From a virus, in the IMG/VR virus record IMGVR_UViG_3300000295_000011: a stretch of 57,714 nucleotides of DNA; one strand, written 5' to 3'. Positions 7,258 to 57,714 of this stretch are shown here, in pieces (the stretch's first letter is position 1; each line of letters starts with the position of its first letter). The notes under the pieces were generated by a model. That model was not told the origin of the DNA. It worked only from the letters and a program-made list of their open reading frames with translations, and made no database searches. The position numbers and the translations under genes were made by a program.

Positions 7258-7385
7258 TACCCCTTTTGCGGGTGGAGCGGTCTCGACATGACGTGATCGT
7301 TTCGCATGTTTCCGATCGCGTGACCCCTTTACCCACCACATTCTTTGCTTTCGACAGGGATTGCCGCCTCAATCACGTTGAACGC

Positions 7386-7769
7386 ATGAAAAAGATTCTC
7401 TTGGCGGCTGTTGTGGCTGCATTCTTCATCTCTACCGCCGCAGATGCTCGTGGTGGTCGCGGTTTCGGCGGACGCTCTTTCTCGCGCCCGTCTGCTGCCA
7501 GATCAGTCCCGAATCGCACGACTGTCGTGAAGAAGAACACGACCGTCATCAACCAGACGGTTAACAGCTCCGCCACGTCAAGCGGCGGCGGGTTCTGGTC
7601 TAGCGTCATGGGTTCGGCTGTCGGCTCGACGGCGGGTTCTATGGCGGGCAATGCCATTTACGACTCCATGACGAAGGACGACGAACCGAAGCAGCCGGCA
7701 CAGGCTCAGCCGCAGGTCATCTATGTGCCTGTCGACCAGAACGGGAAGCCCGTTAAACAGGCTCAGTGA
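7386..7769 (+). CDS. secreted Gly/Ser-rich protein (moron-like)
   Basis: Signal peptide MKKILLAAVVAAFFISTAADA. Bracketed by terminators at 7225-7257 and 7829-7861. Confidence 0.65.
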   Translation: MKKILLAAVVAAFFISTAADARGGRGFGGRSFSRPSAARSVPNRTTVVKKNTTVINQTVNSSATSSGGGFWSSVMGSAVGSTAGSMAGNAIYDSMTKDDEPKQPAQAQPQVIYVPVDQNGKPVKQAQ

Positions 7770-7828
7770 ACCGAAGGGGGGCATTTCAGTTATTCGAAAT
7801 TTTCGAACAGCTGACCGAACCCATGCGC

Positions 7829-7861
7829 AAACTCCCGCGTAAAAAAAACGGGAGTTTTTTA
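7829..7861 (+). terminator. intrinsic terminator
   Basis: AAACTCCCG ... CGGGAGTTT followed by a T-run. Confidence 0.7.
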
Positions 7862-7892
7862 TTCGTCCAGAACATGACTTGAGGAGGTCTGC

Positions 7893-9127: not shown

Positions 9128-9164
9128 AAACTCTCGGAGGGGTGACCCAGTAACCGAGAGTTTT
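9127..9164. terminator. hairpin terminator after the methyltransferase
   Basis: AAAACTCTCGG, 16-nt loop, CCGAGAGTTTT. 11-bp stem flanked by A- and T-runs. Confidence 0.6.
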
Positions 9165-9236
9165 ACAACCATGTTTGAAGGATTGTCTTAACTCGGCGAA
9201 CATCGGAACTGCCCCGTACCTTCCGAGAGTATTCAT

Positions 9237-9653
9237 ATGGCTAGAACAAAAATTCCAATCGACTTGAGAAAGGTTGAGGAATACGCTCAAGTCTGCGACA
9301 GCGAGGAGGAAATCGCTTTTGCTCTTGGGATTTCCCAAGACACCCTGACTCGCCGAAAACAGGAATATGCGGATTTTGCGGAAGCGATAAAAAGAGGCAA
9401 GGCCAAGGCTAACGTTTTCGTCGGCGGCAAGCTCATGGAAAAGATTCGAGGGGGCGACACGGCCTCCATCATCTTTTACATGAAAGCCCGTTGCGGCTGG
9501 AAGGAAACCTCGCGCAACGAATTGTCGGGCGCGAACGGCGGCGCAATCAAGGTTGACGCCACGCCCGACCTCTCCGGCGTTGATTTGGACAAACTTAAGG
9601 CGGTAAAGGAAATGCTTTATGGCAACTCGACTGCCGACACTGATCGAACTTGA
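9237..9653 (+). CDS. terS: terminase small subunit
   Basis: 138 aa with an N-terminal HTH-like segment (EEIAFALGISQDTLTRRK). Directly upstream of and overlapping TerL. Confidence 0.7.
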   Translation: MARTKIPIDLRKVEEYAQVCDSEEEIAFALGISQDTLTRRKQEYADFAEAIKRGKAKANVFVGGKLMEKIRGGDTASIIFYMKARCGWKETSRNELSGANGGAIKVDATPDLSGVDLDKLKAVKEMLYGNSTADTDRT

Positions 9654-11064
9654 TCAGGAGATTGCGCGGCGCAGCCTGTCCGAGTTCTGCAAGATGGCGT
9701 GGCACGTGCTCGAGCCTGCAACTCCGATCAAGTGGGGCTGGGCGCTCGACGCGATGTGCGAGCACCTCGAGGCCGTGCACAACGGTCAGATCAAGCGCCT
9801 TTTGATGAATGTTCCGCCGGGCATGATGAAATCGCTCTTGACGGGCGTTTTCTTTCCGGCTTGGGAATGGGGCGCAGGCGGACAGCCTTCAATGCGCTAT
9901 CTGACGACGGCGCATAAGGAAGACCTCGCTATCCGAGACAACCTCAAGTGCCGACGCCTGATCTCCTCTGACTGGTATCAGGAGCGATGGGGCGTTGAGC
10001 TGTGTGGCGACCAGAACGCAAAGAAGAAGTTCGAGAACACGGCTACTGGCTTTCGTGAGTCAATGGCTTTCCGAAGCCTTACTGGCTCTCGAGGCGATCG
10101 CATCATCATCGACGACCCGCTGTCTGTCGACGATGCGTTTTCACAGGCCGCGTTGCTCTCCGCTGAGACAACCTTCCTAGAAGCCGTCCCGTCACGAGTG
10201 AACAACAGCGATTCGGCGATCATCGTGATCATGCAGCGCTTGCATGAACGCGATACGTCGGGCGTGATCCTCGCCAAGGAACTCGGCTATGAGCACCTGA
10301 TGCTCCCGATGCGCTTTGAGGAAAACCGCAGGTGTAAAACCTGCATCGGCTTCACCGACCCTCGAAAGAAGGAAGGGGAGCTGCTCTTCCCAGAGCGCTT
10401 CACAGCCTCGCAGGTGGACGAGATGGAAAAGACGATGGGCGGCTACGCTACGGCGGGTCAGTTCCAACAGCGTCCCGTCCCGCGCGGCGGCGGCCTGTTC
10501 AAGGCCGAGTGGATCCAACGGTGGACGCCCGAGATGCTCCCGACGCACTTTGATCGCGTGCTCTGCTCTTGGGACATGACCTTCAAGGGCACGGACCGAA
10601 GCGACTACGTTGTGGGTCAGGTCTGGGGTGCGCGTGACGGCAACTTCTACCTGCTCGACCAGGTTCGCGGGCAATGGGACTTCGTGAAGACGGTCGAGAT
10701 GTTCGAGCGGCTTTCCGAGAAGCACCCAGAGGCCACGCGCAAGCTGGTCGAAGACAAGGCGAACGGTTCTGCCGTGATTGCCACGCTGAAGAAGCACGTG
10801 ACGGGCATCGTCCCGATCACGCCGAAGGAATCCAAGGAAGCACGCGCCTACGCCGTGTCGACGCTCTGGGAGGCGAAGAACGTCTTCCTCCCGCCGGCCA
10901 CGGCCACATGGGTCGACCTTGAGTTCATTCCCGAGCTTTTGGCGTTCCCGGCAAGCGCTCACGACGATATGGTCGACTCAATGACTCAAGCGCTTTCTGA
11001 CCTGACGAAGAACGCGCGTCCGAAGATTCACGCGTCTAACCTCGCCTACCTCCGCAGGGGTTAG
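9619..11064 (+). CDS. terL: terminase large subunit
   Basis: Walker A-like NVPPGMMKS, Walker B IIIDDP, C-terminal nuclease acidic motif AHDDMVDS. 481 aa. Confidence 0.85.
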   Translation: MATRLPTLIELDQEIARRSLSEFCKMAWHVLEPATPIKWGWALDAMCEHLEAVHNGQIKRLLMNVPPGMMKSLLTGVFFPAWEWGAGGQPSMRYLTTAHKEDLAIRDNLKCRRLISSDWYQERWGVELCGDQNAKKKFENTATGFRESMAFRSLTGSRGDRIIIDDPLSVDDAFSQAALLSAETTFLEAVPSRVNNSDSAIIVIMQRLHERDTSGVILAKELGYEHLMLPMRFEENRRCKTCIGFTDPRKKEGELLFPERFTASQVDEMEKTMGGYATAGQFQQRPVPRGGGLFKAEWIQRWTPEMLPTHFDRVLCSWDMTFKGTDRSDYVVGQVWGARDGNFYLLDQVRGQWDFVKTVEMFERLSEKHPEATRKLVEDKANGSAVIATLKKHVTGIVPITPKESKEARAYAVSTLWEAKNVFLPPATATWVDLEFIPELLAFPASAHDDMVDSMTQALSDLTKNARPKIHASNLAYLRRG

Positions 11065-33001: not shown

Positions 33002-33616
33002 ATGGCCGGTTTTCTTGATCTAACCGGCCTCTCGCGCTTCAAATCGAAGTTGCTTGAGGCCATTGCAAACGTTTATGTCACCAAGACAGCACATTCGAAG
33101 GCGCTTAACCTCAAGGTCAACAAGGCCGACCTTGAATCTGAAATCAAGCGAGTCCTTGGAACTCTAGACACGGGCATCCCGGTTGGCGCGATCATGGCCT
33201 TCCACGATGTGCCTGCGGGATGGCTTCAGTGCAACGGGGCGGCGGTGAGTCGAACGACTTACGCCGCTCTTTTTGCAAAGATCGGCACAAAGTACGGCTC
33301 GGGTAACGGCTCGACGACGTTCAACCTCCCGAACCTTCACCATAAGTTCATCGAGGGCACGACCACTTCTTCAGAGGTTGGTAAGTCTGTGTCGGCTGGG
33401 TTACCGAACATCAGCGGACGACTCGGCGCATACGACTGTGACGACTCCAAATTCTCAGGGCCATTTCAATATGTAGGCCATGAAGGCGGCGTCTCAACTG
33501 CATGGAGGAGCGTTCCGTACGCGAATTTTGACGCCTCGCGTGCATCGTCAAAATACGGCTCTTCGTCAACCGTCCAACCAGAGTCCATCCGCCTGATCCC
33601 TTGTATCAAATCTTGA
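33002..33616 (+). CDS. tail-collar-domain fibre / receptor-binding protein with exchangeable C-terminal tip (cassette A expressed)
   Basis: Collar-type segment PVGAIMAFHDVPAGWLQCNGAAVSRTTYAALFAKIGTKYGSGNGSTTFNLPNL. Crossover site CCGAACATCAGCGG at 33404-33417. Confidence 0.85.
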   Translation: MAGFLDLTGLSRFKSKLLEAIANVYVTKTAHSKALNLKVNKADLESEIKRVLGTLDTGIPVGAIMAFHDVPAGWLQCNGAAVSRTTYAALFAKIGTKYGSGNGSTTFNLPNLHHKFIEGTTTSSEVGKSVSAGLPNISGRLGAYDCDDSKFSGPFQYVGHEGGVSTAWRSVPYANFDASRASSKYGSSSTVQPESIRLIPCIKS

Positions 33617-33821
33617 TGCAAAGGATGAGCCTCAGTGCCGAAGGCTGTACCGTTGATGCAGAACCGTAGGTGCTGTCAGACTTGGCCGCAGAAAAGGAAA
33701 ACTTTCGGAATTGAATCTGGCCCGGGTTAAAGTATGCCTTGCTGCCCGTGGACGAGGAAAAGGCACCGGTGCCCTCCTCGCCGTGGTCACCACCACCAGG
33801 CAAAGCGCCCGTTATGTTCGG
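33606..33821 (-). other. silent fibre-tip cassette B (71 aa)
   Basis: PNITGALPGGGDHGEEGTGAF...STVQPSALRLILCIKI*. Stop-free, with no plausible independent start. Confidence 0.8.
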
Positions 33822-33826
33822 ACGCA

Positions 33827-34048
33827 CCGAACATCACAGGTGAATTCCCAAACAATGACAACGAATATGAAAAGTATTATTCAGGCGCATTTTCTATCGG
33901 ATCTGTAAGGCTTTCTGGCTATTCAGACGGAAATGGCTCTACCGGGCAGACTGGATTGTTCCGGGCTTCCAGGTCATCATCAACTTACGGATCCAGTACG
34001 ACTGTCCAACCCTCATCTGTTCGCTCGCTTTTCTGCATTAAATCTTGA
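33827..34048 (+). other. silent fibre-tip cassette C (73 aa)
   Basis: PNITGEFPNNDNEYEKYYSGAF...TTVQPSSVRSLFCIKS*. Confidence 0.8.
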
Positions 34049-34241
34049 TGCAGAAAAACGACCGGACGGCGGCAGGCTGCACGGTCGAAGAGCTGCTGTA
34101 AATCGCGCTTGAGCGAGATGCCGAAAAGTCAGCCGTGTTGCTCCCCCAGAGCTGCCCCTCTGAACAATTCCCGTCGCCGGTCTTTTTGAAGGCACCGGTT
34201 CCTGACAGCCATGACGCAGCGAGGGTTCCACTGATGTTCGG
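34038..34241 (-). other. silent fibre-tip cassette D (67 aa)
   Basis: Hand-translated: PNISGTLAASWLSGTGAFKKTGDGNCSEGQLWGSNTADFSASRSSAIYSSSSTVQPAAVRSFFCIKI*. It has no start codon, so it is absent from the ORF track. Confidence 0.75.
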
Positions 34242-34246
34242 TGCGT

Positions 34247-34456
34247 CCGAACATAACAGGTAGCTTCTTTGGACGATACGGCGGCTATTACAGCGGAGCG
34301 TTCACAGCCAACAGCTCATATAAAAGCGATGCGTGGGCCGGGACGGATCCAAACCCAACCTCAGATTTCCGAGCGTCTCGAAGCTCGTCTGTGTACGGAG
34401 CGGCGTCGACCGTCCAGCCGGCTTCAACCCGTATGCTCTTGTGCATCAAGACTTGA
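34247..34456 (+). other. silent fibre-tip cassette E (69 aa)
   Basis: PNITGSFFGRYGGYYSGAF...STVQPASTRMLLCIKT*. Confidence 0.8.
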
Positions 34457-34661
34457 TGCACAGGATAAGCCTGAGAGAAGCAGGCTGTACTGTTTGCGTC
34501 GCACCATACGTGCTATCTGAGTCTGATGCGTCGAAATAGAACAAGTGTCCGCCGTTGTTATCTTTGTTTGGGCAGTCTACAATTTTGCCAACTCGAAAGG
34601 CACCATTTTGTGTGCCGACGGGAACGTAAGCAGACGCCACAAATTCTCCTGTGATGTTCGG
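34446..34661 (-). other. silent fibre-tip cassette F (71 aa)
   Basis: PNITGEFVASAYVPVGTQNGAF...QTVQPASLRLILCIKS*. Confidence 0.8.
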
Positions 34662-34666
34662 TGCGT

Positions 34667-34870
34667 CCGAACATAACGGGTGCAGTCACTGCGTCATGGG
34701 TAAGAGGCACTGGAGCCTTCAAAGATGCCGAAAATGGTAATTGCCCAGGCGGAAACCTCAATGGGCCCGCCAAAATAGACTTTTCGGCATCTCGCTCAAG
34801 CGACTTGTATGGCTCGTCTTCAACTGTGCAGCCCGCTTCAATTCGTCTCGTTCACTGTGTTAAGTTTTAA
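34667..34870 (+). other. silent fibre-tip cassette G (67 aa)
   Basis: PNITGAVTASWVRGTGAFKDAENGNC...STVQPASIRLVHCVKF*. Related to cassette D. Confidence 0.8.
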
Positions 34871-35108
34871 TGCAATGAACGAGACGGACAGACGAGGGTT
34901 GGACGGTCGACGTGCCATATGTGCTACTGGAACGTGAGGCATCAAAGCGCAGACAACCGCCTTTGTCATTATTGATGATACTGTAATAAGACACAGCCGA
35001 TGCAGCGGTTGTTCTTGTCTTGCTGTAAATCGCTCCAGAGACATATTTATTTACTGCGGTGACATCAGCGGCACGCAAGGTGTCATAACCGACACCTGTG
35101 ATGTTCGG
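34860..35108 (-). other. silent fibre-tip cassette H (82 aa)
   Basis: PNITGVGYDTLRAADVTAVNKYV...STVQPSSVRLVHCIKT*. Confidence 0.8.
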
Positions 35109-35113
35109 ACCGT

Positions 35114-35329
35114 CCGAACATCACAGGACAAGTCAACCTATGTGGGGCTTGGGGTGGCGTCTCGAACGCCGGCGCTCTATCGACGCGCGGTTCTACCGGA
35201 GCGCCGACTGGCGGAGCACAGAACGGCGTAAATGTCTACTTTGATGCTTCGGCTTCAAGAAGCACATATGGATCGTCCAGTACAGTGCAGCCGTCATCTA
35301 TCAGAGGACTCTTCTGCATCAAGATTTGA
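35114..35329 (+). other. silent fibre-tip cassette I (71 aa)
   Basis: Hand-translated: PNITGQVNLCGAWGGVSNAGALSTRGSTGAPTGGAQNGVNVYFDASASRSTYGSSSTVQPSSIRGLFCIKI*. Not in the ORF track. Confidence 0.75.
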
Positions 35330-35549
35330 TGCAGTGAACGAGGCGAAGCGATGTCGGTTGAACAGTCGATGATGCGCCGTACTTCGCGTCGGAATTTGAT
35401 GCCGCAAGGGCAATGTCTGTAATGACGGATGAGCCAACGTTCGTCTTGCCGTTCCACGGCGTGGAGGACTTCCCACCAGAAAGTGCTCCACTGGCGGTGA
35501 AGTCATCGCAAGCTACGTTAAACGGCTTGATAGCGCCTGTTATGTTCGG
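35319..35549 (-). other. silent fibre-tip cassette J (76 aa); the only cassette with an in-frame upstream ATG (35564)
   Basis: (MQIRV)PNITGAIKPFNVACDDF...STVQPTSLRLVHCIKS*. Confidence 0.8.
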
Positions 35550-35641
35550 GACTCGGATTTGCATGTCATAGAGCGCTCTCTATGTCGTGCCGGGCACATG
35601 AGCGGGCTTCATCTGCAACTCGACGAAGCCCGCGCTGTTGG

Positions 35642-36781
35642 CTACTTCCAGTCGATCATGCCGGCACATTCGGCACACGCTCGAACGTGCTCACTCCAGC
35701 GCTCCATAACCGCCCTCCTGGCGTCGAAAAAGTCGGAGCGCTGATAGGCTCTGCTTACCTGCGTACCGACATCGTGGCTGAGACACATCTCCGCAACGTC
35801 GAAAGGGACAGCTTCGTCCGCAAGCCACGATCTTGCTATCGATCGCAGGCCGTGTGCAACGAGTCGTCCCTTGAGCGATGTACTGTGCAGGTGCTTCGCC
35901 AAGGCCTGCGAGCTAACGGGCTTGCCGGTGCTCTTGCCGGCAAAGACATGACCGCTTCGTGGCCTCGGGCTGAGCGTCTGCTCTCTGGCGATCAGCTCCT
36001 TCATGAAAGACGTGAGGGGCACGCGAAATGGCCGTCGCTTCTTCATGTGCTCAGCTGGTATGTGGATCGCGTCTTCTGTGATCCACGACTTCTCGAGCGA
36101 AGCATTCTCGCCTGGTCGAAGCATCGAGCAGAGCGAGAAGAGGAAGAGCACGCGCATGCGCTCCGGCGCTTCTTTCATAACCGCCATAACGGTGGGCAAC
36201 TCTCGCCAGTCGACAGACGGCATCGGCTTGACCTGCGGCGGTGCGAAGACCTTCGATACTCGTGCGAGAGGGTTGTGCTCGATGTAGCCGGCACAAACGG
36301 CGAGGTCAAGGATCTCGCGAAGGCGCATGAGTACGCGCTTGAGCGTCGCCTGCTTGCCGTCCTTTTCTATCGGCTGCACGGTTCGGATCACGAGCGGAGC
36401 CGTGATCTCGTCGAGCTGACGATTTCCGAGCGGTTCGATGATGTACCGCTCCAGGCGTCGGCGCTCGTCCTGATAGCTCACGATCTGGGGCTTTTTGAGG
36501 CGGCACCAAAGACGAAAAGCGTCTTTCAGTACATACCCTTTTGGCGGCTCGAGCCCGATGTCCTTTCTTAGGCGTCGGGCTTTTTGTCGTGCCTGCATCA
36601 GGCTCATGTCGGGATGTTCGCCGAGACGCTTGTCTGCGACACGGCCTGAGCACGACGTGCGAAAGTACCAGATTTTTCTGCCGGACGGCATGACTCGCAA
36701 CGTCAGGCCGTTCCCGTCGGCTACCGAATATCTCTTGTCCCGCGGCTTCATTGCCGCAATTTTTTTAGAGGAGAGCGTCAT
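35642..36781 (-). CDS. tyrosine recombinase (P4-integrase-like), candidate shufflon invertase
   Basis: 379 aa. N-terminal arm-binding-type domain (YSVADGNGLTLRVMPSGRKIWYFR). Catalytic signature LRPGE ... HGLRS ... AYQRSD. 78 nt from the end of ORF J (92 nt from site 35536-35549). Paralogous to int at 45402. Confidence 0.85.
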   Translation of the reverse strand: MTLSSKKIAAMKPRDKRYSVADGNGLTLRVMPSGRKIWYFRTSCSGRVADKRLGEHPDMSLMQARQKARRLRKDIGLEPPKGYVLKDAFRLWCRLKKPQIVSYQDERRRLERYIIEPLGNRQLDEITAPLVIRTVQPIEKDGKQATLKRVLMRLREILDLAVCAGYIEHNPLARVSKVFAPPQVKPMPSVDWRELPTVMAVMKEAPERMRVLFLFSLCSMLRPGENASLEKSWITEDAIHIPAEHMKKRRPFRVPLTSFMKELIAREQTLSPRPRSGHVFAGKSTGKPVSSQALAKHLHSTSLKGRLVAHGLRSIARSWLADEAVPFDVAEMCLSHDVGTQVSRAYQRSDFFDARRAVMERWSEHVRACAECAGMIDWK

Positions 36782-37363: not shown

Positions 37364-37434
37364 CGAATCAATCCGTCCCCCGGCACTCCCGGGATTTTTT
37401 TAACTTGCAGGGAGAGGCAACAAAGGAGGTATTT

Positions 37435-37788
37435 ATGCCTGACCGTTATCGGGACATCCTGACAGGTTCTGGCGTGTGGATTGCGCTTTTTGCATCCCTC
37501 GGCGGATGCGTTCTGCGCTATCTCGAAGAGTACAAGCACGAGAAAAAGTGGCATTGGAAGTGGCTCGCTGCCGATCTTCTTTCGTCTGCGTTTCTCGGCT
37601 ACTTCACGTTTTGGGTGCTCTGGGATTCAGCGCACTTCACAGCCTCGCAGTGCGCTGTGGCCACGGCGATCGTCGGCAACTTCGGCACTCGGATCTTTGA
37701 CGTCGTGCGGTTCGTGATCTTCAAAAAAATCGGGTACGTCCCGCCGAATGAACGCCCCTCTGCCGCCGATGAGGAATCCAAGAAATGA
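37435..37788 (+). CDS. holin-like membrane protein
   Basis: AAAGGAGG RBS. Three hydrophobic segments and a charged C-terminus. ATGA-coupled to the endolysin. Confidence 0.6.
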   Translation: MPDRYRDILTGSGVWIALFASLGGCVLRYLEEYKHEKKWHWKWLAADLLSSAFLGYFTFWVLWDSAHFTASQCAVATAIVGNFGTRIFDVVRFVIFKKIGYVPPNERPSAADEESKK

Positions 37789-38240
37789 AAAGCTACTACT
37801 CATACGACATTCAGCCTGCCTGTGACTTCATCGCGAAGTACGAGGGTTGCAGGCTCACGGCGTACCTCTGTCCCGCAGGCGTGCCAACCATTGGCTACGG
37901 CCACACGGGTCCAGAAGTGCGCAAGGGCATGACCATCACGCAGGCCGAAGCCGACGAACTGCTCCGCAAGGATGTGGAGCGCCACGTGCATGATTTCTCG
38001 CAATACGTGAACGTCCCCGTCACCGGAAACCAGTTCATCGCGTTGACCTCCCTCGTTTTCAATTGCGGCGTGAGCTACGTCGTTCACCAGTGCCCGCGCC
38101 TCATGCGTTCGCTCAATGCGGGCGACGTTGAAGCCTGCGCTCACGAATTCCTCGACATCAACCGCGCTGGCGGAAAGGTGCTTGCGGGCTTGACCGAGCG
38201 CCGTCGCGCCGAAGCAAAACTCTTTCTCTCGGAGGTCTGA
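37785..38240 (+). CDS. endolysin, GH24 lysozyme type
   Basis: FIAKYEGCRLTAYLCPAGVPTIGYGHT matches the phage lysozyme catalytic region. Confidence 0.85.
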   Translation: MKSYYSYDIQPACDFIAKYEGCRLTAYLCPAGVPTIGYGHTGPEVRKGMTITQAEADELLRKDVERHVHDFSQYVNVPVTGNQFIALTSLVFNCGVSYVVHQCPRLMRSLNAGDVEACAHEFLDINRAGGKVLAGLTERRRAEAKLFLSEV

Positions 38241-38242
38241 AC

Positions 38243-38782
38243 ATGGTCTATCTGAAATGGCTGGCACTCATGCCTGCGTCGTTCATCATGGCCATCGTTG
38301 GCCGCCTCCTCGCACCGATCCTGCCGCTCTTCGTGGACAAGGAAACGCACCGCCTGCCGGATTGGCTCTCGTGGTTTGCAACGGACGACCACGACGCAGA
38401 CGGGGATCAGGGTCACTGGGAGCGTTGGCCGGGCACTGATTGGTGGAGTACGTACAAAAGGCGCGTTGCCTGGCTCCTTAGGAATGTCTGCTACGGCTTC
38501 GACATCGACGTCCTCGGCGTGCGCGTCTACCCGACGGACGAGTGGCACGTGAGCGGTAATCCGGACGCGAGCGACACGAATGGCATCTCGGGCACTTGCA
38601 TCCGACACTGCTACCGTGACGGCAAGCACATCGCCTGGCACCTCTACGTCGTGAAGCACTACGAGCTTCTCGGTCTACCCTGCTGTGTGCGCATCAGCCT
38701 CGGTTGGAAACTCTGGGGCTCTCGTGACAAGACGGCGCAGTACACCGTGTACTTCAACCCGATCAAGGGATGGGAGCTATGA
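38243..38782 (+). CDS. hypothetical membrane-anchored protein in the lysis cassette
   Basis: N-terminal TM (LALMPASFIMAIVGRLLAPILPLF). Trp/Asp-rich body. Confidence 0.55.
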   Translation: MVYLKWLALMPASFIMAIVGRLLAPILPLFVDKETHRLPDWLSWFATDDHDADGDQGHWERWPGTDWWSTYKRRVAWLLRNVCYGFDIDVLGVRVYPTDEWHVSGNPDASDTNGISGTCIRHCYRDGKHIAWHLYVVKHYELLGLPCCVRISLGWKLWGSRDKTAQYTVYFNPIKGWEL

Positions 38783-39778: not shown

Positions 39779-39862
39779 CGGATTCTACTCTGGCGGGTAG
39801 TATCTAGCGGACTCCTATGCCGCATAAAGCCCCTGCGCTACTCGCGTGGGGGCTTTATTTTT
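39779..39862 (+). ncRNA. candidate sRNA of about 85 nt, bounded by a promoter and a terminator
   Basis: Bounded by the promoter above and the terminator at 39826-39862. No ORF. Confidence 0.3.
39826..39862. terminator. bidirectional terminator between the lysis side and the accessory operon
   Basis: AAAGCCCC ... GGGGCTTT with an inner GCG/CGC stem and ATTTTT on the plus strand. Sits between convergent transcription units. Confidence 0.7.
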
Positions 39863-39915: not shown

Positions 39916-40488
39916 TCAGTCATCGTCGTCATCATCAGTGCTGATCATGGGGAAGCCGTAGAACACTTCCCCAGTCGGGAAGGCGCCCGTGTACTGTGGG
40001 TACCGCGTCACGCCCCGGAAGGGGAACTCGTACATCGGGGCTAAATTCTTGTGGTACTCAGTAAGCATCGCGTCAATTTCGGGCGTGAAGAATCGCGGGA
40101 TATAGGCAGGATCAACATAGCCGTCGACCAACTTTCTGACAAAGTAGTACCAGCGGCCGTCCTCGTTTCGCTTGAGGCTGTACATATCAAGATCGAGCCT
40201 CGGGTTTTCGTCCATGTCTGACCTCAACTCGACTGCCGCCCACGTCACGACTACTTTGTGAGCGTTTCGCGTGCAAAGCACCTGAGTCACAGCGTAGCGC
40301 GCCCACTTTTCATCGTCGCCGCTTCTCAAGTAAAAGCACGCAGCGAGGCGCGCGACATGCAACGCCATTTCGGGGTAGGCGCACTCTCTCGCGCCAACGG
40401 CTTCGGCGAAAACCCGCGCGAAGAGCGGAGCGGTGGCGGGCAAATTGCGAAGGTCTATGCCTTCCATTTCTTTTGTAAGGTTCTTCAT
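39916..40488 (-). CDS. hypothetical protein with a poly-Asp C-terminus, paralog of 44328..44807
   Basis: Shared motif DLRNLPATAPLFA. Ends in STDDDDDD. Confidence 0.65.
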   Translation of the reverse strand: MKNLTKEMEGIDLRNLPATAPLFARVFAEAVGARECAYPEMALHVARLAACFYLRSGDDEKWARYAVTQVLCTRNAHKVVVTWAAVELRSDMDENPRLDLDMYSLKRNEDGRWYYFVRKLVDGYVDPAYIPRFFTPEIDAMLTEYHKNLAPMYEFPFRGVTRYPQYTGAFPTGEVFYGFPMISTDDDDDD

Positions 40489-40652
40489 TTGCTTTGCTTC
40501 TCCGGCATGGTCTTTTTGATCTGCTCAGCGATCCACTTCGAGCCGCCCAACTCCCTCAACCGCTCGCGCAGTTCCTTCGGGATGTAAATCAGGACGTTCA
40601 TGCCGCCTTCGGGCGTGTGTCTCGGTCGCCCGGTTACCTTCCTTTCTCTCAT
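40485..40652 (-). CDS. small RHH-like protein
   Basis: MNVLIYIPKELRERLRELGG resembles a CopG/Arc beta-strand plus helix. GAGGAG RBS before the ATG at 40652. Confidence 0.45.
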   Translation of the reverse strand: MRERKVTGRPRHTPEGGMNVLIYIPKELRERLRELGGSKWIAEQIKKTMPEKQSK

Positions 40653-40663
40653 CTTCCTACTCC

Positions 40664-41167
40664 TCAGATATCCCACGATGTCGAAAACTCTCGGTCCTTG
40701 AACAGTGCGGCCAGCCCCGTGATCTGCTTCAGCCTCAGCAGTTCGTCGGCGTCCATGCCGAGGTGCTTCATAATCCACGCGTCCTTCATGCCCGCCTCTC
40801 GCAATTCCTTGACGATGTTCGCCATGAGGTCAACGTCGTGCGTACCTCGGGCGCGGTTGTGTCTCACGGTACTGGCCATTCGATTGCTGATGTCCTTCTC
40901 GATCACCACAACAGGCAACTTGCCGCCTTCGCGTTCGTAGATGTCTTTATGGGTCAGCATCACCGTGTAGCGGTGGAACCCGTCGACGATCTCGTACTTG
41001 TCCACGTCTGGGAGGTAGTAGCACACGATGGGCATCGTGTAGCCGTCTTCCTTGATCGAGTCGTAGAGCAGTTTCATCTCGGGCGGGGCGACGTGGTTCG
41101 GGTTGTACGTGTTCGCCTGAATCTTCTCGACCGGGATCGCCTGAACGTTGTAAACGGGTGATTTCAT
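40664..41167 (-). CDS. ParB-like nuclease-domain protein (IbrB/DndB-like)
   Basis: EIVDGFHRYTV (DGxHR motif). TAATG overlap with the PAPS-reductase gene. Confidence 0.75.
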   Translation of the reverse strand: MKSPVYNVQAIPVEKIQANTYNPNHVAPPEMKLLYDSIKEDGYTMPIVCYYLPDVDKYEIVDGFHRYTVMLTHKDIYEREGGKLPVVVIEKDISNRMASTVRHNRARGTHDVDLMANIVKELREAGMKDAWIMKHLGMDADELLRLKQITGLAALFKDREFSTSWDI

Positions 41168-42465
41168 TACAAGCTCCTGAATTTCGCCAAGACCGCGTCT
41201 CGCTTTGCCTTCATCTCCTTCGTGATGGAGAAGCTCAAGCCTTTGCAAACGAAGTCGTTTTTGATAATGCACATGGCCATACGTCGCCACGTGCAGAAGT
41301 CGTCCTTGCCCTCAAGCTCGGGCAGTTCGTCGAGCGGCTCGCGGAACTTTACGAGGTACTTGTCCTTCGCGCCTCGCGTCCCGTAGCTCCGCGTATTGAT
41401 GATCGTGTCGCCGTACTTCGCTTCCAGGATTTCGATCTGTTCATCGGGGACAGGGCATCCAACGTCCCGCCAGTACGCAATGAACTTTGTGAAGCGGTCG
41501 CGGTAGTTATCGGCAGCGGCGGGCGGCAACGTCGTGAGCAGGAATTCTGTGAACTGCTTCCACGTGTAGTTCTTCGGCAATTTGTAGCTGTTGCTCATGA
41601 TCTTCGAGCCGCTGTAGATGTTGCCGAAGTTCGCGCCGCTCACACGATTGACGAGCTTGCCCCAGAGGTCGGGCTCGATCACCTTGAACTGAGCGAGGCC
41701 GGCCTTGGCCTCATTGCCGAACGGTTCGTCGATGCGCATCTTGTGGATCGGGACGCCTGCGAGGTACATCAGGTCGTAGATCGGGTTGTACGGCTTCGCG
41801 AAGCGGGCGTTGTACGTCCAGATGTCCTCGACCGCCCAGTCATAGATCGGGTAGAAGTTGAAGACGTTCTCGCTCACCTTCGTGCTGAAGCGCTTGCCCT
41901 TGTAGGTTTCCTTGTTCCCGGCAATGGCGCGGAAGCGGTTCAGGCTTTCGTCCGTGCGGATGCCGACAAGGCACGCGGTCTTCTCGCCGTGGCCGATCGT
42001 CTCGCCGATGTGCTTGATGAATTCCTCGAACGTCATCTTCGGGACGTACCAGTCGAAGGGGTTGTTCTGCAGGTTGATGACCCACCTGTTCTTCGGCATA
42101 TCGCGCACCCAGATCGTACGCTTCTCCTCGTCCCACCAGACCCACGTGGGCTCGAAGTAGGAGAGGGAATTCGGCGAGGTCATCGGGAGACAGACCCACA
42201 TGGGAATGAGCACGTCCTCGTTCTCGGTGAACATCTTTTCCACGAATGCTGCGCTCTTCTGATAGAACGCCTCGAGGTCGATGAAGACCGCATGGAACTT
42301 GCGCCCGCGCCGGCGTGCGATGTCGATGCACTGGTTGAGCACGACCCCCGAGTCCTTTCCGCTCGAGAAAGAAACGTAAATGTGCTCGAACTCGTCAAAG
42401 ACGTAGTTCAGGCGCTCCTGCGCTGCATCGAACACGTTCTGCGCCCTGTATTTTTTGATGGTCAT
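41167..42465 (-). CDS. PAPS reductase-family PP-loop protein (IbrA/DndC-like)
   Basis: PP-loop SFSSGKDSGV. About 430 aa. ATGA-coupled to the helicase gene. Confidence 0.75.
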   Translation of the reverse strand: MTIKKYRAQNVFDAAQERLNYVFDEFEHIYVSFSSGKDSGVVLNQCIDIARRRGRKFHAVFIDLEAFYQKSAAFVEKMFTENEDVLIPMWVCLPMTSPNSLSYFEPTWVWWDEEKRTIWVRDMPKNRWVINLQNNPFDWYVPKMTFEEFIKHIGETIGHGEKTACLVGIRTDESLNRFRAIAGNKETYKGKRFSTKVSENVFNFYPIYDWAVEDIWTYNARFAKPYNPIYDLMYLAGVPIHKMRIDEPFGNEAKAGLAQFKVIEPDLWGKLVNRVSGANFGNIYSGSKIMSNSYKLPKNYTWKQFTEFLLTTLPPAAADNYRDRFTKFIAYWRDVGCPVPDEQIEILEAKYGDTIINTRSYGTRGAKDKYLVKFREPLDELPELEGKDDFCTWRRMAMCIIKNDFVCKGLSFSITKEMKAKRDAVLAKFRSL

Positions 42466-43622
42466 AGATCCTCCAGTTTCATGCCCGAGAGCTTGAAGGC
42501 GTTCACCAGTGTTAGCTTTTTCGCGATGCACTTGTCGAACAGCTCCTCGAGGCCGATGTCCGCGCCCGTCAGGTCGAAGTACTCGCAGGATTCCTGCTGT
42601 CCCATGCGGTAGATGCGGGCTTCGGACTGCTCGCGGAAGGCGTAGTCGAACGTCTTGTCGAAGTAGATGATTCTGCGGTACTTCTGAAGGTTCAGGCCGA
42701 ACGAACCCTTGCCGTAGGTCATCACCAGAGCCTGCGGGAACATCTCCTGCAGATAGTCGCGGGCCGCGATGAAGCGGCAGTAGATGATCGTTCGGTCATC
42801 GACATACGGAGTGATGAGCGGGACCTTCTCACTGGCTAGCGTGTAGAAGTGATGGAGCTTCTGCATCGCCCCCAGGATTTCAAAGTCATCCTCGGCAGCG
42901 GCAATGAGTTCGCACTTCAGGTTCTCGTACCCGAAACGCTCGGTCTCGGTCATGTGCCACGTGAGCGTCCGGTACTTCTTCGCGAGCGGGAGGTCGAGCG
43001 AGCATTCGTAAACATACGGCTCGATGATGCTGAGCAGGTGCTCGACGTTGGCGTAGCCAGTGATGTACGTGCGCACAGGCTTCCCGTAGCGATGTTCTGT
43101 CGAGTAGACGCAGTAGTCGTCCCTGAACTTGAAAAAATTCTTGTCGAGGATCTTCGGCGACAGGAAAAGCATCTGGGCATAGATGTCCAGAATGTTCTTC
43201 GTGATCGGCGTCCCGTTCAGGATCAGCTTGTACTCGCAACGTTCGCCCATGTGCAGGAGCCGTTGCGTGCGCTTCGCCCTCAGGTTCTTGATCTTGATGG
43301 ACTCGTCCACGACGATGGCCGCGCACTTGGCCGCGTCGATCTTGTCGAGGACTTCGACATAGACGCGGTCGCTCTGGCCGATGCTCTCCACGCCGTAGAA
43401 GTCGAATTCGTACTCGGAGCAGCAGAGTTCGATTTCCTTGCGGGCGTTCTCGATGGTGCGCAGGGGCGCGACCCACAGAACCAGATCGAGGCCGGGGATC
43501 GAATTGATGAGCGAGACGGCGGTCTGTGTCTTGCCTGTCCCGCAACCCATGAAAAGCGCTCCGACCTTCAGGCGGCGGAGCTTCTCAAAGGCTTCCTGTT
43601 GGTTATCGGATAAGAGACGCAT
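42462..43622 (-). CDS. SNF2/DEAD-like helicase
   Basis: Walker A GCGTGKTQTA, DExx box VVDESIKIKN, SNF2 motif III LNGTPI. Confidence 0.75.
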   Translation of the reverse strand: MRLLSDNQQEAFEKLRRLKVGALFMGCGTGKTQTAVSLINSIPGLDLVLWVAPLRTIENARKEIELCCSEYEFDFYGVESIGQSDRVYVEVLDKIDAAKCAAIVVDESIKIKNLRAKRTQRLLHMGERCEYKLILNGTPITKNILDIYAQMLFLSPKILDKNFFKFRDDYCVYSTEHRYGKPVRTYITGYANVEHLLSIIEPYVYECSLDLPLAKKYRTLTWHMTETERFGYENLKCELIAAAEDDFEILGAMQKLHHFYTLASEKVPLITPYVDDRTIIYCRFIAARDYLQEMFPQALVMTYGKGSFGLNLQKYRRIIYFDKTFDYAFREQSEARIYRMGQQESCEYFDLTGADIGLEELFDKCIAKKLTLVNAFKLSGMKLEDL

Positions 43623-44016
43623 CAGGCTTGACCTCGGTTTCGGGTTTGAGGATCCTGGGGGTGTGCTTGACGGTCCACTTCGGCAGGCGCTCGAGCACCT
43701 CGTTGGGCGGCACGTAACCTTCGTCCCACTCCTCTTCCTCGTTGTAAAAAGCCAGTTCATCGGCCAGTCGATCGGCTGAAATGATCACGTTGCGGCCTTC
43801 ACCCCTGAGGGTGATCTTGAAAGAGGCGGGAATGCTCAGGCAGTGCTGTAGGGCGTAGCGCCCCGGGTGGACGAACTTCCTAGCAGTCCAGAACTCAAAA
43901 CCCGCGTAACGGCTCGAAGCGGGCATCTTGATGAGGATGCCCTTCTCGGTGGTATGGGCGACGAGAGTGGATGCGAATATGATTCGCACCCACACAGTTT
44001 CGGCGGCGGCTTTCAT
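43603..44016 (-). CDS. hypothetical protein, paralog of 44019..44315
   Basis: Shared N-terminal pattern GILIKMPASSRYAGFEFW versus AMLIAMPHSSDYDGFTFW. Confidence 0.6.
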   Translation of the reverse strand: MKAAAETVWVRIIFASTLVAHTTEKGILIKMPASSRYAGFEFWTARKFVHPGRYALQHCLSIPASFKITLRGEGRNVIISADRLADELAFYNEEEEWDEGYVPPNEVLERLPKWTVKHTPRILKPETEVKPDASLIR

Positions 44017-44018
44017 GG

Positions 44019-44315
44019 TTACCTGATGCGCATAGCGCCGTGGAATTCGCCGAAGGCTTCGATGAGTTCATCGCAGCCGACTTCCTTTTCGTCAAGCACC
44101 TTGCGCGTCTTTTCACTGGTGCGCTTGAGGTTGAACGTCATGTCCTCGTTGATCGAAACGAGCATCTCGAAGTCGTTCGAGCCGTCGCGCACGAGCTTTT
44201 TAGAGATCCAGAAGGTGAAGCCGTCGTAGTCGGACGAGTGCGGCATGGCGATGAGCATGGCCTTGTCCGTTTCGTGCTTGATGTTCTGAATGTTGACCTT
44301 GATCTTCTTCCACAT
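44019..44315 (-). CDS. hypothetical protein, paralog of 43603..44016
   Basis: See the paralog entry. 98 aa. Confidence 0.6.
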   Translation of the reverse strand: MWKKIKVNIQNIKHETDKAMLIAMPHSSDYDGFTFWISKKLVRDGSNDFEMLVSINEDMTFNLKRTSEKTRKVLDEKEVGCDELIEAFGEFHGAMRIR

Positions 44316-44327
44316 GGTGCGTTCTCC

Positions 44328-44807
44328 TTACTGGCGGTTATGGGCGGCGTAGTAGTCGTGAAGCATGAGGCTAACTTCGTCGGGGAAGTTGACGCGCTCG
44401 GACGTGAGCTGCTTCCCTGTCTCGGGGTCGACCGTGATTGCGATCGTGTACCAGTGGCGGGCGTCCTCGGAGAGGAAGGAGATGCCGAGGGCGCAGTTGT
44501 GCAGGCCGTAGGAGTATTTGTTGCGCTCGGCGTTCGCCCAGTCGTGGATGATGTCGCCGGCTTCTTCGCCTTCGCAGGTTTCGGTGGCGAAGCCGTACCA
44601 ACGGTCGTCGGCTTCGGCGGTCTGCAGGTAGTAGGCAGCGGCGAGCTTGGCAAGCTCGAGGGCGACGTGCTTGTACTTGCACTCGACCGCGCCGAGCGAG
44701 GCGGCGTGCAGGTAGGCGAAGAGCGGAGCGGTGGCGGGGAGGTTGCGGAGGTCGACGTTGTGGGCTTCGTTGGCTTCGTCGATCATGAAGTCGATGTAGG
44801 TTCGCAT
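44328..44807 (-). CDS. hypothetical protein, paralog of 39916..40488
   Basis: DLRNLPATAPLFA motif. First gene after the promoter at 44870-44898. Confidence 0.65.
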   Translation of the reverse strand: MRTYIDFMIDEANEAHNVDLRNLPATAPLFAYLHAASLGAVECKYKHVALELAKLAAAYYLQTAEADDRWYGFATETCEGEEAGDIIHDWANAERNKYSYGLHNCALGISFLSEDARHWYTIAITVDPETGKQLTSERVNFPDEVSLMLHDYYAAHNRQ

Positions 44808-44869
44808 GGTGGTTTCCTTTCTGGCGGGTTTTCGGAAAGGGCGGGTAGTACGCCTGCCCTATGCCTTGC

Positions 44870-44898
44870 ATTATACATATGGATATAGGAAAGTTCAA
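44870..44898 (-). promoter_or_regulatory. near-consensus sigma70 promoter of the accessory operon
   Basis: Minus strand TTGAAC (44898-44893), 17-nt spacer, TATAAT (44875-44870). Confidence 0.65.
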
Positions 44899-45090
44899 GG
44901 GGGAAAAGTGGCGGGCATTGCGGGCATCGTGTCCTTCATGGACGCCCGACACCCGTCACCGCGAGCGGCACTCGCTTCGTTCGATGCGGTCTGCGCGGAA
45001 CACTTCCCCGACGCGCCCGACTGGGTGATCAGAAGTGCGAGGCGAACGATTGAAGCCAGGTTCTACCAGTGCTAGACTGAAAGCACGAAA

Positions 45091-45120
45091 AAAGCCCCGG
45101 GGGTCATCCCTCGGGGCTTT
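45091..45120. terminator. 13-bp GC-rich hairpin terminator
   Basis: AAAGCCCCGGGGG-TCAT-CCCTCGGGGCTTT. The T-run is better on the minus strand (TTTTTTCG). Confidence 0.6.
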
Positions 45121-45128
45121 CTCTTGAC

Positions 45129-45388
45129 AAAATTGGGGCAAAAATTGGGGCAAAACCCAAGCTCCCTTCCAGAAGCCTTCTGCCACAACGAATCATGGCG
45201 GAGAAGGGGTCTGTCGAACCCCGTTAGACATCCCCTAGACATCCCCTAGACATCCCTTAGACATTTCCCCGTTGAGCCGTGGGTTTTCGCCCGTTTTCGG
45301 TTAGCATGATGGGACAGAGTTAGACATCTGTTAGACATCTTCTAGACATTTTCTAGACAGACAAAATTGGGGCAAAATTGGGGCAAAC
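45129..45388. promoter_or_regulatory. candidate attP: two phased arrays of 4x TAGACAT flanked by 2x AAATTGGGGCAAA on each side
   Basis: TAGACA starts at 45225, 45236, 45247, 45258 and at 45321, 45332, 45343, 45354, with exact 11-bp spacing. GGGGCAAA doublets lie at 45129-45156 and 45361-45388. The region abuts the int start codon. Confidence 0.6.
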
Positions 45389-45401
45389 ATAGGAGCCAGT
45401 C

Positions 45402-46589
45402 ATGCAAGTCACCGCCAGAAACATCGGGAGCCTCCCAGTGGGGACTCACCGAGCAGAACGTTGCCTATATTTAAGAAAGCGAGAGGGTCACGCGCCGACG
45501 TGGGTCTTCCGCTACACGGTCTCGGGAAAGCAGAAGGACGTGGTGATCGGGACGGCGGACGCCGTGACGATTGCTCAGGCAAAGGAAACCGCCGCACGCT
45601 TTCGCACGATGATTGCCGACGGGGTCGACCCGCTTGCCGCGAAGCAGGAGCGGCGGGAGAGGATGAAGAACGCGGGCGCGGAGGTTGACCGCCCGTTCAC
45701 CTTCGCCGACCTCGTTGCCGAGGCCCTGCCCGTCATCGTGCAGAGCAAGGCGTGGCGAAATCAGAAACACGCTGCACAATGGCAATCGACCCTCGAGCAG
45801 TACGCCCTCCCTGTACTGGGTAAGCTGTCGGTCGAGGACGTGAGCCGAGACGACATCCTTGAAGTACTCGTGCCGATTTGGAGAACGAAGCCGGAGACTG
45901 CTGGCAGATTGCGCGGCAGGCTTGAGGCCGTCTTCGCCTACGCCATAGTCATAGGAAAGCGAAGCGGAGGGAATCCCGCCCTGTGGCGCGGGAACCTTGA
46001 GATGTTCCTGCCGCCGATTGCCAAGGTGAAAAAGGAAAGTCACCACGAGGCGCTCACGTTCGACCAGGCTCGCGCGCTTTTCGATGAGTGGCGACCGCCC
46101 ACGTCGATCACGGCCTGCGCGATTCTGTTTGGGGCGCTGACCGCGTCCCGCGTCGGGGAATTCGTGCCCGCGAAGTGGGAGGAGATCGACCTGCACAGGG
46201 AGGTCTGGCACTGCCCGCCCGAGCGACGAAAGGACGGGAAGAAATACCCGCACCGCGTCCCGCTGTGCCGGCAGCTCGTTTCCATGCTGAAGATGCTCCC
46301 GCACGATTCCCCGTATGTGTTCGCCGGCAAAGGCGGCTCGCACATCTCGAAGGAGACGCCCCGCGTGGTTCTCCAGAAGAAGCTCGGGCACGGGACAATG
46401 CACGGCTTTCGCTCGACATTCCGTGACTGGTGCGCGGAGAACGGGAAGGACCCGATTGTTGCCGAGAAAAGCCTGATGCACGCTACTGGGAGTGCCGTGG
46501 TTCAGGCGTATCAACGCTCCGACCTCCTAGACGCTCGCAGGGTTCTGATGCAGGAATGGGCGGACGCCGTGTACCCGGAGCAGGTTTGA
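45402..46589 (+). CDS. int: integrase, P4-type tyrosine recombinase
   Basis: N-terminal arm-binding-type domain. Catalytic signature SRVGE ... HGFRSTFRDW ... AYQRSD. Adjacent to the repeat-rich attP and to xis. Confidence 0.9.
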   Translation: MQVTARNIGSLPVGTHRAERCLYLRKREGHAPTWVFRYTVSGKQKDVVIGTADAVTIAQAKETAARFRTMIADGVDPLAAKQERRERMKNAGAEVDRPFTFADLVAEALPVIVQSKAWRNQKHAAQWQSTLEQYALPVLGKLSVEDVSRDDILEVLVPIWRTKPETAGRLRGRLEAVFAYAIVIGKRSGGNPALWRGNLEMFLPPIAKVKKESHHEALTFDQARALFDEWRPPTSITACAILFGALTASRVGEFVPAKWEEIDLHREVWHCPPERRKDGKKYPHRVPLCRQLVSMLKMLPHDSPYVFAGKGGSHISKETPRVVLQKKLGHGTMHGFRSTFRDWCAENGKDPIVAEKSLMHATGSAVVQAYQRSDLLDARRVLMQEWADAVYPEQV

Positions 46590-57660: not shown

Positions 57661-57714
57661 GCGTGGAACTAGGATGTACATCCCACGGTGCCTGTACATT
57701 CCCTACCAACGTAG
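57661..57714. repeat. terminal direct repeat copy 2, identical to 1-54
   Basis: See copy 1. Confidence 0.9.

Follow-up and report, generated by a model that had tools for sequence, protein, structure and literature searches.

A mobile phage cassette links the IbrA/IbrB pair to an SNF2 ATPase and may direct ATP-driven action to DNA

Introduction

What would a phage gain from placing a PP-loop enzyme of the PAPS-reductase fold, a ParB-like protein and an SNF2-type ATPase under a single promoter? This question is raised by positions 39,916 to 44,898 of the IMG/VR virus record IMGVR_UViG_3300000295_000011, a stretch of 57,714 nucleotides (nt) that we refer to as the window. An earlier note, made from the letters of the window, described an accessory operon of eight leftward genes, named two of the products IbrA and IbrB, and proposed a DNA-modification, anti-restriction or defence module rather than a mere transcription co-activator. 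The IbrAB pair itself is known and widespread, and no mechanism for it was found in the literature that we searched. Sandt and colleagues reportedly found in 2002 that IbrAB activates prophage eib genes, the only phenotype that we know of for the family.

Here we find that the pair belongs to a four-gene core (a tail-bearing candidate adaptor, SNF2, IbrA and IbrB) to which this phage adds a dedicated promoter and terminators, one small basic protein and a pair of acidic paralogs. We describe the gene anatomy and family membership of the cassette, the conservation of its catalytic motifs, its gene linkage and its mobility, along with the lack of a conserved cysteine and of effector partners. 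Our favored reading, which we put forward tentatively and short of conviction, is that the cassette encodes a phage-serving machine that is driven by ATP, is directed at DNA and carries out modification or remodelling.

Results

IbrA is a PP-loop enzyme without a conserved cysteine

All eight minus-strand open reading frames (ORFs) of the operon were found between 44807 and 39916, and their stop and start codons overlap or nearly abut; the genes are translationally coupled. From first to last, they are (aa, amino acids):

44328–44807, minus strand: gpA, 159 aa
44019–44315, minus strand: small1, 98 aa
43603–44016, minus strand: small2, 137 aa
42462–43622, minus strand: SNF2, 386 aa, its ATG lying 20 nt inside small2
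41167–42465, minus strand: IbrA, 432 aa, ATGA overlap
40664–41167, minus strand: IbrB, 167 aa, TAATG overlap
40485–40652, minus strand: 55-aa protein
39916–40488, minus strand: gpA', 190 aa, ATGA overlap, DDDDDD tail

The motifs on which these genes were first recognized are all present: GTGKT, DES and NGTP in SNF2, SSGKDS in IbrA, DGFHR in IbrB and the acidic tail of gpA'.

IbrA combines two Pfam domains in the order PF01507 (PAPS_reduct; 45.6 bits, cut-off 22.5) then PF11922 (DUF3440; 161.9 bits, cut-off 25). It matches phrog_2302 (E 4e-101) and aligns over its full length (residues 1-422) with ECs_1386, annotated ibrA, of the SpLE1 element of Escherichia coli O157 Sakai (35% identity, E 2e-83). 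IbrB exceeds the ParB_N cut-off (30.8 versus 26.3 bits) and matches phrog_2159 (E 7e-82). These scores bear out the identification of the products as an IbrA/IbrB pair.

The PP-loop of IbrA, SFSSGKDS, is at least 90% conserved at S34, G36, K37, D38 and S39 among 161 homologs. In an AF2 model (pLDDT 74) compared by Foldseek, the N-terminal half matches PAPS reductase, human and yeast FAD synthase, CysD, LarE, TilS and GMP synthetase (best E 8e-7), and these matches include enzymes that only transfer AMP. The PAPS-reductase fold uses the α-phosphate of ATP, and in some members the reaction ends with transfer of AMP to an oxygen of phosphate or sulfate. For the DUF3440 half, the top PDB hits of the model include no structural neighbour. 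Loops 96-109, 172-180, 248-256 and 275-291, which are modelled with low confidence, coincide with the most conserved sequence blocks, a combination typical of loops that become ordered upon substrate binding; they are likely substrate loops.

Cysteine conservation separates IbrA from the better-known enzymes of this fold. No alignment column of the 161 homologs is cysteine in 90% or more of the sequences. The most frequent cysteine columns reach 84%, 84%, 72% and 51% and are occupied by A, V, L or M in the other members, the pattern of buried residues rather than of ligands. The lack of a conserved cysteine excludes both the thiol chemistry of CysH and the cysteine-dyad and Fe-S chemistry of DndC. 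IbrA of this Sutterella phage is 57-64% identical to Firmicutes copies, a degree of identity across phyla that argues for strong selection. Its motifs and profile matches identify IbrA as a PP-loop ATP-pyrophosphatase, with a PAPS-reductase fold and a DUF3440 domain and without a conserved cysteine.

IbrA is neither CysH nor DndC

Current annotation would make IbrA an auxiliary metabolic gene product, a viral CysH that boosts host sulfur assimilation. PHROG places the family in the category 'moron, auxiliary metabolic gene' under the name PAPS reductase. Virome work counts the DUF3440 clade as cysH, which it describes as the most abundant organosulfur auxiliary metabolic gene, especially in human-associated samples, and lists Streptococcus thermophilus phages CHPC877, D4276 and CHPC1062 as carriers (Kieft et al.). 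IbrA and CysH do share the N-terminal PP-loop α/β fold. However, IbrA has neither the catalytic cysteine nor the ECGLH tail of CysH, carries the extra DUF3440 domain and is obligately linked to the ParB-like IbrB. It stays roughly ten-fold below the cut-offs of the CysH models (22.9 versus 165.1 bits for TIGR00434, 23.0 versus 154 for NF002537 and 24.1 versus 254.2 for TIGR02057), and PAPS reductases of known structure match its sequence only at residues 175-252 (E 0.02). CHPC877 and CHPC1062 carry IbrA, and CHPC877, D4276 and CHPC1062 carry an adjacent ParB-like gene; the full four-gene order is confirmed only in CHPC1062. Obligate association with a ParB-like protein, and frequent association with an SNF2 ATPase, would be senseless for an enzyme of sulfate reduction. 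We find the CysH role hardly credible, and the lack of a catalytic cysteine, the ParB-like partner and the frequent SNF2 partner together argue that the viral cysH annotation of the DUF3440 clade is wrong.

The earlier note held that the pair mirrors DndC/DndB, which would make IbrA and IbrB the counterparts of DndC and DndB in a phosphorothioation of phage DNA. The parallel holds for fold and pairing: in both systems a PP-loop enzyme of the PAPS-reductase fold goes together with a ParB-superfamily protein bearing a DG-x-HR-type motif (DGFHR in IbrB, DGQHR in DndB), and IbrA matches the PADLOC DndC model locally (residues 157-249 only, E 2.6e-9). It fails elsewhere. Against the DndC equivalog TIGR03183, IbrA scores 28.5 bits, the cut-off being 290.4, and IbrB matches no DndB model of PADLOC or Pfam at E ≤ 0.01. 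A cysteine desulfurase (DndA/IscS), DndD and DndE are absent from the eight operon proteins and from the flanks of 28 diverse loci, chosen so that mutual IbrA identity is <60%. DndC requires a cysteine dyad (PMC10853773), whereas IbrA has neither this dyad nor the Fe-S ligand set. Phosphorothioation is a highly improbable function of the pair. We conclude that IbrA belongs with neither CysH nor DndC, that IbrB is distinct from DndB and that the Dnd parallel is an analogy only.

A precedent for the missing dyad is BrxP of BREX type 4, a helicase-containing system, whose PAPS-reductase domain likewise lacks the DndC cysteine dyad (PMC12839542). BrxP differs from IbrA in having a Cys-rich, Fe-S-like region and DUF4007; its partners BrxC, PglZ, BrxL and a desulfurase are not present here, and the PADLOC BrxP match to IbrA covers 24 residues only.

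IbrB is a short ParB-like protein

When IbrB is aligned to Spo0J (1vz0), DGFHR replaces GERR, with the last Arg kept, and RHNxAR stands where ENxQR does in ParB clamps. Among homologs, conservation reaches at least 90% in the motifs DGxHR and RHNxARGxH, and a helix-turn-helix (HTH)-like segment, LGMDADELLRL, is conserved as LGMDxDExxRL. The protein stops at 167 aa, without a C-terminal dimerisation domain. IbrB would be a short ParB/Srx N-terminal domain, predicted to bind a nucleoside triphosphate (NTP), together with the HTH-like segment. In some lineages an ectoine-synthase-like cupin (PF06339, E 3e-37) is fused in frame to the IbrB ParB domain (L038, 4392-5324; also L039 and L040), which hints at extra chemistry attached to the pair.

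Short ParB-like genes adjoin enzyme genes in two other systems, the ParB-dependent thymine dioxygenase 5mYOX176/ParB176 and DpdA/DpdB. There a phage or cellular enzyme depends on the short partner, which has an NTP-binding N-domain, to modify duplex DNA. The ParB-dependent phage thymine dioxygenases act on double-stranded DNA, after replication (PMC13229309), and DpdB works with DpdA (PMC12839542). The enzyme considered here differs from 5mYOX176 and DpdA in being a PP-loop ATP-pyrophosphatase with an SNF2 motor and an adaptor added, and its action on DNA is putative. Phages also encode ParB-methyltransferase fusions and SNF2-methylase 'polyvalent' proteins (PMC5512222). These share with the cassette the combination of ParB or SNF2 with a putative DNA-modifying enzyme, but here the genes are separate and catalysis would fall to a PP-loop enzyme instead of a methylase; this phage encodes a ParB-methyltransferase as well (see below).

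A minimal SNF2 ATPase and a candidate adaptor

SNF2-family proteins are duplex-DNA translocases. The 386-aa SNF2 protein of the operon (PF00176, 39.9 bits versus a cut-off of 24.9, E 3.5e-10; phrog_62, E 1e-57) is minimal, comprising two RecA lobes only. Motifs I, II, III and VI are intact, with GTGK, DES, GTP and Q332/R336/R339/G341/Q342 at least 90% conserved among 79 homologs, and the homolog of S. thermophilus phage CHPC1062 is 35% identical (E 3e-63). Membership in a family of duplex-DNA translocases, the ParB-like character of IbrB with its HTH-like segment and the ParB-partner precedents point to DNA as the arena in which the cassette acts. An SNF2-IbrA fusion was also considered and rejected: the SNF2 homologs of 630-643 aa bear an unrelated C-terminal extension.

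The two small proteins encoded upstream of SNF2 are paralogs, as had been proposed (34% identity, E 7e-14), and both match phrog_27058, a family of 566 representative clusters. The AF2 model of phrog_27058 (pLDDT 88.6) is all-β with one C-terminal helix; it has no match in the PDB (best E 0.43) and in BFVD matches only uncharacterised phage proteins. Canonical members end in a conserved tail, HTPRILKPETEVKPDASLIR in small2 and TEPVKVERKVEVIKELER in streptococcal phages. Small2 is such a tail-bearing member, and small1 is a tail-less duplicate, one of the few members without the tail. In 16 loci an unrelated protein of ~110 aa lies upstream of SNF2 and shares just this tail with phrog_27058 (hhalign E 8e-5). 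The tail is probably a docking peptide to partners, and we propose that small2 is an adaptor for the SNF2 ATPase. The docking reading is weakened by the overlap of the last six tail codons with the start of the SNF2 gene, which could explain part of the tail conservation.

Long homologs of the small proteins carry N-terminal extensions in which no informative domain was found except one helix-bundle domain of NrS-1 polymerase. This domain occurs in P0442 (628 aa) together with three phrog_27058 domains, an architecture that hints weakly that the small domain works on DNA.

The core recurs in unrelated phages and has no recurring effector

Gene neighbourhoods were scored at 171 IbrA loci, which were drawn from IMG/VR, GTDB genomes, metagenome contigs and GenBank phages and represent phages, prophages and genomes of many phyla. 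IbrB adjoins IbrA in ~166 of the 171 loci, and SNF2 lies directly upstream of IbrA in ~96 of them (~55%), across unrelated phages, which shows the proposed helicase partnership to be real and widespread. Of the 92 SNF2 loci scored for it, 50 have a phrog_27058 gene immediately before SNF2. The order small protein-SNF2-IbrA-IbrB also occurs in S. thermophilus phage CHPC1062, Lactobacillus phage phiAQ113 and one temperate siphovirus contig. In T4-like contigs the gene order is rearranged and the core lies near a SAM lyase and a DNA methylase; these contigs carry replication and structural genes, and no lysogeny genes were seen in the flanks fetched. IbrA homologs form at least 6,539 protein clusters at E ≤ 1e-10, are present in 223 GenBank phage records and have carriers ranging from Firmicutes to Heimdallarchaeota. 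Two IbrA-IbrB pairs stand back to back in one viral contig (L062, L069 and L070, ~6970-11040).

No further conserved partner emerged among ~8,000 clustered neighbouring ORFs. A Pfam scan of 109 flanking proteins from the 28 diverse loci found no family in more than three loci, the matches being integrases and HTH repressors, and these flanks contain no recurring effector, be it a nuclease, a desulfurase, a methylase or another protein. The usual neighbours of the cassette are lysis genes and lysogeny genes.

These surveys bear on a role in prophage defence or superinfection exclusion, in which the operon would be expressed from its own promoter in the lysogen and would mark or attack incoming DNA. 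The insulated succession of terminator, promoter, genes and terminator at the prophage end fits such a role, and PADLOC 2.0 returned partial matches of SNF2 to ZorD, DpdE and DrmD, and of IbrA to DndC and BrxP. However, all of these matches are local and generic: the best (E 1.7e-12) spans 160 residues in a model of 908 positions, the NCBIfam scores fall well short of their cut-offs, and no complete system was found. No nuclease or other effector is conserved, and the same core is found in the T4-like contigs, with no lysogeny genes in their flanks. We judge prophage defence unlikely. The T4-like contigs, the lack of a recurring effector and the strong conservation favor a phage-serving role over host defence. 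The original set of proposals (DNA modification, anti-restriction or defence) is narrowed accordingly: host defence is the least favored, phage-serving action on DNA is favored, and the transcription co-activator, which had been set aside, is kept as a rival.

Gene position also bears on a role in replication, nicking or packaging, with a ParB-type nicking activity or NTPase, a helicase and an AMP-transferase working on DNA ends. Next to terminase, the genome ends of Microbacterium phage Hendrix and of cluster B mycobacteriophages are bordered by ParB-like and PAPS-reductase-like genes, and ParB domains are able to nick DNA (PMC5512222). Such a role is nonetheless very unlikely, for the cassette is far from terminase and replication genes here and in most loci, the phage encodes its own replication, structural and packaging gene sets, and the cassette moves as an accessory unit.

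The operon moves with its own promoter and terminators

The operon is bracketed by the following elements, listed with the exact repeat shared by its first and last genes:

45091–45120, minus strand: hairpin, then T-run to 45085, upstream of the operon promoter
44870–44898, minus strand: sigma-70-type promoter, TTGAAC-17-TATAAT
44808–44869, minus strand: 5' untranslated region (5'UTR), 62 nt, with ribosome-binding site GAAAGGAAACCACC
44716–44738, minus strand: exact 23-nt repeat, gpA copy, CCCGCCACCGCTCCGCTCTTCGC
40418–40440, minus strand: exact 23-nt repeat, gpA' copy
39824–39858, no strand assigned: terminator hairpin, 15-bp stem, common to the converging lysis operon

The promoter matches 10 of the 12 consensus positions, in keeping with its description as near-consensus, but taken together, the sites found by the promoter scan do not exceed chance expectation (4 versus 1.8 ± 1.5). 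Promoter and 5'UTR are 100% identical in four cassettes that differ in upstream flanks or first gene, and the promoter is identical in L018, L010 and L090 despite differing flanks. Homology between cassettes starts ~15 nt upstream of the -35 element and stops at the terminator, in differing contexts. Identity of promoter and leader despite differing flanks or first gene indicates that the unit moves as a cassette with its own promoter and terminator, and the operon is self-contained in this sense. Judged from sequence, it has the hallmarks of a moron, with a promoter and terminator of its own and movement as a whole.

The terminator had been described as bidirectional. Its 15-bp-stem hairpin, conserved in L010 and L018, has a good T-run on the plus strand, but the minus-strand T-run, which would serve the operon, is weaker, so that termination in both directions is only partly supported. 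At the other end, the hairpin at 45091-45120 (inverted repeat I3, 13-nt arms, 92% complementary), in which the minus strand reads ...GGGGCTTTTTTCG, probably insulates the operon from read-through. No significant RNA structure was found in the 5'UTR (folding z-score -0.27), an Rfam scan for RNA elements returned no family at threshold, and comparison by eye of the operon promoter with the TATAAC repeats of the cI-cro region revealed no CI-operator-like similarity. Divergent from the promoter, a candidate 44-aa ORF (44941-45075, plus strand) ends at the 45091-45120 hairpin; it has no family match and could be a small excisionase or regulator, or no gene at all.

The first and last genes of the operon are paralogs, as the earlier note had recognized (34% identity, E 6e-21), and encode acidic proteins (pI 4.85 for gpA and 4.95 for gpA'). 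The 55-aa protein is basic (pI 10.4). Its pattern of β-strand and helix resembles ribbon-helix-helix, the label first given to it, which stands as an impression from sequence with no profile match. Neither it nor gpA or gpA' has a match in Pfam, PHROG, NCBIfam, PADLOC or PDB sequences, and all three are found only in ten Sutterella-phage cassettes. GpA' is cleanly absent from L010 and gpA is absent from L090-L094, and every copy retains at least one A gene.

The nucleotide similarity of ~30 nt reported between gpA and gpA' amounts to an exact 23-mer, none being expected by chance, which forms a direct repeat flanking the conserved core. In relatives, it lies in gpA (L010, L018) or in gpA' (L090, L091, L093). 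Its absence from gpA' of L018 rules out a generally conserved DNA site. The 23-mer is more likely a gene-conversion tract between the paralogs, or it may be a recombination substrate.

IbrAB of E. coli and the case for a co-activator

In E. coli, IbrA/IbrB is encoded by the IbrAB island of ECOR-9, by ECs_1386/1387 of O157 Sakai SpLE1 and, as the paralogs YbdN/YbdM, by K-12, with the same PF01507 + PF11922 architecture of IbrA. As in the phage, the ParB-like gene overlaps ibrA downstream, and the setting is mobile or prophage in both. The difference lies in the company of the pair, which here is part of an eight-gene unit with SNF2, two phrog_27058 proteins, the 55-aa basic protein and the acidic paralogs. 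In SpLE1 (L175, 34762-39798), a UvrD/REP-type helicase pseudogene precedes ibrA and a ybdM-like gene, and pchD follows them; a helicase of a different superfamily occupies the position held by SNF2 in the phages. A blastn search with ibrAB against all complete E. coli genomes gave no match, and the E. coli copy was located through the SpLE1 annotation.

A rival reading is a transcription co-activator or anti-silencer that would switch on phage or prophage genes and leave no covalent mark on DNA. IbrB would then work as an NTP-dependent DNA clamp of the ParB type, as does the ParB-like anti-silencer VirB, and IbrA as a regulatory ATPase, while SNF2 would strip nucleoid proteins or recycle RNA polymerase. 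The reported activation of prophage eib genes agrees with this, and homologs have been labelled 'co-activator of prophage gene expression' by GenBank annotators. Several phages hold the cassette at the late/lysis gene boundary or just before terminase, and ibrAB of O157 adjoins the regulator gene pchD. In K-12, ybdNM is an operon repressed by YbdO/CitR in an H-NS region (PMC9068703). The conserved PP-loop and the cross-phylum identity of IbrA, in contrast, point to enzymology and not to a scaffold. At 167 aa, IbrB is without the C-terminal dimerisation domain that ParB clamps need, and no conserved target site was found, repeated palindromes of the window being confined to the attP and tail-fibre regions. 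We regard a co-activator as rather unlikely, though likelier than the other rivals.

The operon belongs to a complete temperate phage

The window begins and ends with the same 54 bp in direct orientation (1-54 and 57661-57714), from which we conclude that it represents a complete phage genome, assembled as a circle of 57,660 bp. The features that define the phage and the site of the operon are (no strand assigned):

904–1599: CI-type S24 repressor
37405–38782: LydA-type holin, lysozyme and DUF7338
45126–45394: attP-type repeat arrays, between the operon promoter and the integrase gene
45402–46589: P4-type integrase

The source of the operon is a complete circular temperate phage, and the operon sits in the accessory slot between the lysis cassette and attP to which it had been assigned. 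The attP-type arrays consist of TAGACAT, repeated eight times at 11-nt spacing, and of AAAATTGGGGCAAA, repeated four times as two pairs. A closely related cassette was found in a prophage whose flanking genes encode exact products named Sutterella wadsworthensis in NCBI, so the host is very probably a gut Sutterella. Megablast searches of annotated phages with the operon and with the structural region found no close relative, and an exact-protein lookup of IbrA returned no record.

Three further features of the phage and its relatives were seen. First, the region 33400-36781 has the look of a shufflon, with multiple inversions that would switch tail-fibre tips. Dense inverted repeats, including the CCTGTGATGTTCGGAC/GTCCGAACATCACAGG family (six copies) and a TGCATCAAGAyTTGATGCA family, fill a region without long ORFs directly after the tail-fibre gene (33002-33616), and are followed by a second tyrosine recombinase (35642-36781, minus strand); the related prophage L090 has the same recombinase at its own tail-fibre locus. 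Second, a gene for a ParB_N + N6/N4 DNA-methyltransferase (7893-9124) is broken by a run of eight G at ~8461-8468. Nine G would rejoin one ORF with DPPY and FGGSGT motifs, and the split reflects either phase variation or an error in sequencing the homopolymer. Third, a related temperate phage contig (L005, 13446-15020) encodes a terminase large subunit with Hint/intein domains.

Discussion

We tentatively favor a machine in which IbrB would bring IbrA to duplex DNA or activate it there, and SNF2 with the small protein would translocate along the DNA or open it. IbrA, converting ATP to AMP and PPi, would adenylate a group on DNA or on a DNA-bound substrate, leaving either a sulfur-free covalent mark or a remodelled DNA state. 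Phage or prophage DNA could in this way escape host nucleases or silencing, and relief of silencing would also account for the activation of eib genes by IbrAB. The promoter and terminators, the small basic regulator-like protein and the one or two acidic accessory proteins (gpA, gpA') would be local additions to this core. In this scheme we infer DNA as the substrate, adenylation as the chemistry, the role of each protein and the pay-off. The stronger and more specific claim, that IbrA, with IbrB and with the SNF2 motor and adaptor where present, installs a new covalent, sulfur-free DNA modification via an adenylated intermediate, is possible but doubtful.

Several points weigh against a DNA-directed machine. 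No IbrAB carrier is known to have a modified base or backbone, and our search of the literature on IbrAB, YbdNM and DUF3440 found no mechanistic study. The one phenotype known to us, that described by Sandt and colleagues, is reportedly transcriptional. The PAPS-reductase fold also makes small molecules (FAD, APS), and the substrate need not be DNA; the DUF3440 half lacks a structural match, and DNA binding by IbrA is putative. SNF2 is missing from ~45% of IbrAB loci, which argues that the core chemistry can proceed without the motor. The insulated layout of the operon at the prophage end, from promoter to terminator, also fits a gene set expressed for the lysogen.

The DNA-directed machine that we favor has the merit of being directly testable, since the four-protein cassette offers clear residues (IbrA K37/D38, SNF2 K31, IbrB R66 and the tail of the small protein). 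Natural variants without gpA or gpA' exist, and E. coli ibrAB or ybdNM can also be used. If the cysH annotation of the DUF3440 clade is wrong, estimates of viral sulfur metabolism would change. If IbrA does install a sulfur-free modification, the activation of eib genes by IbrAB would be an epigenetic effect, and the common 'viral cysH/DUF3440' genes would represent a new class of phage DNA-modification enzyme.

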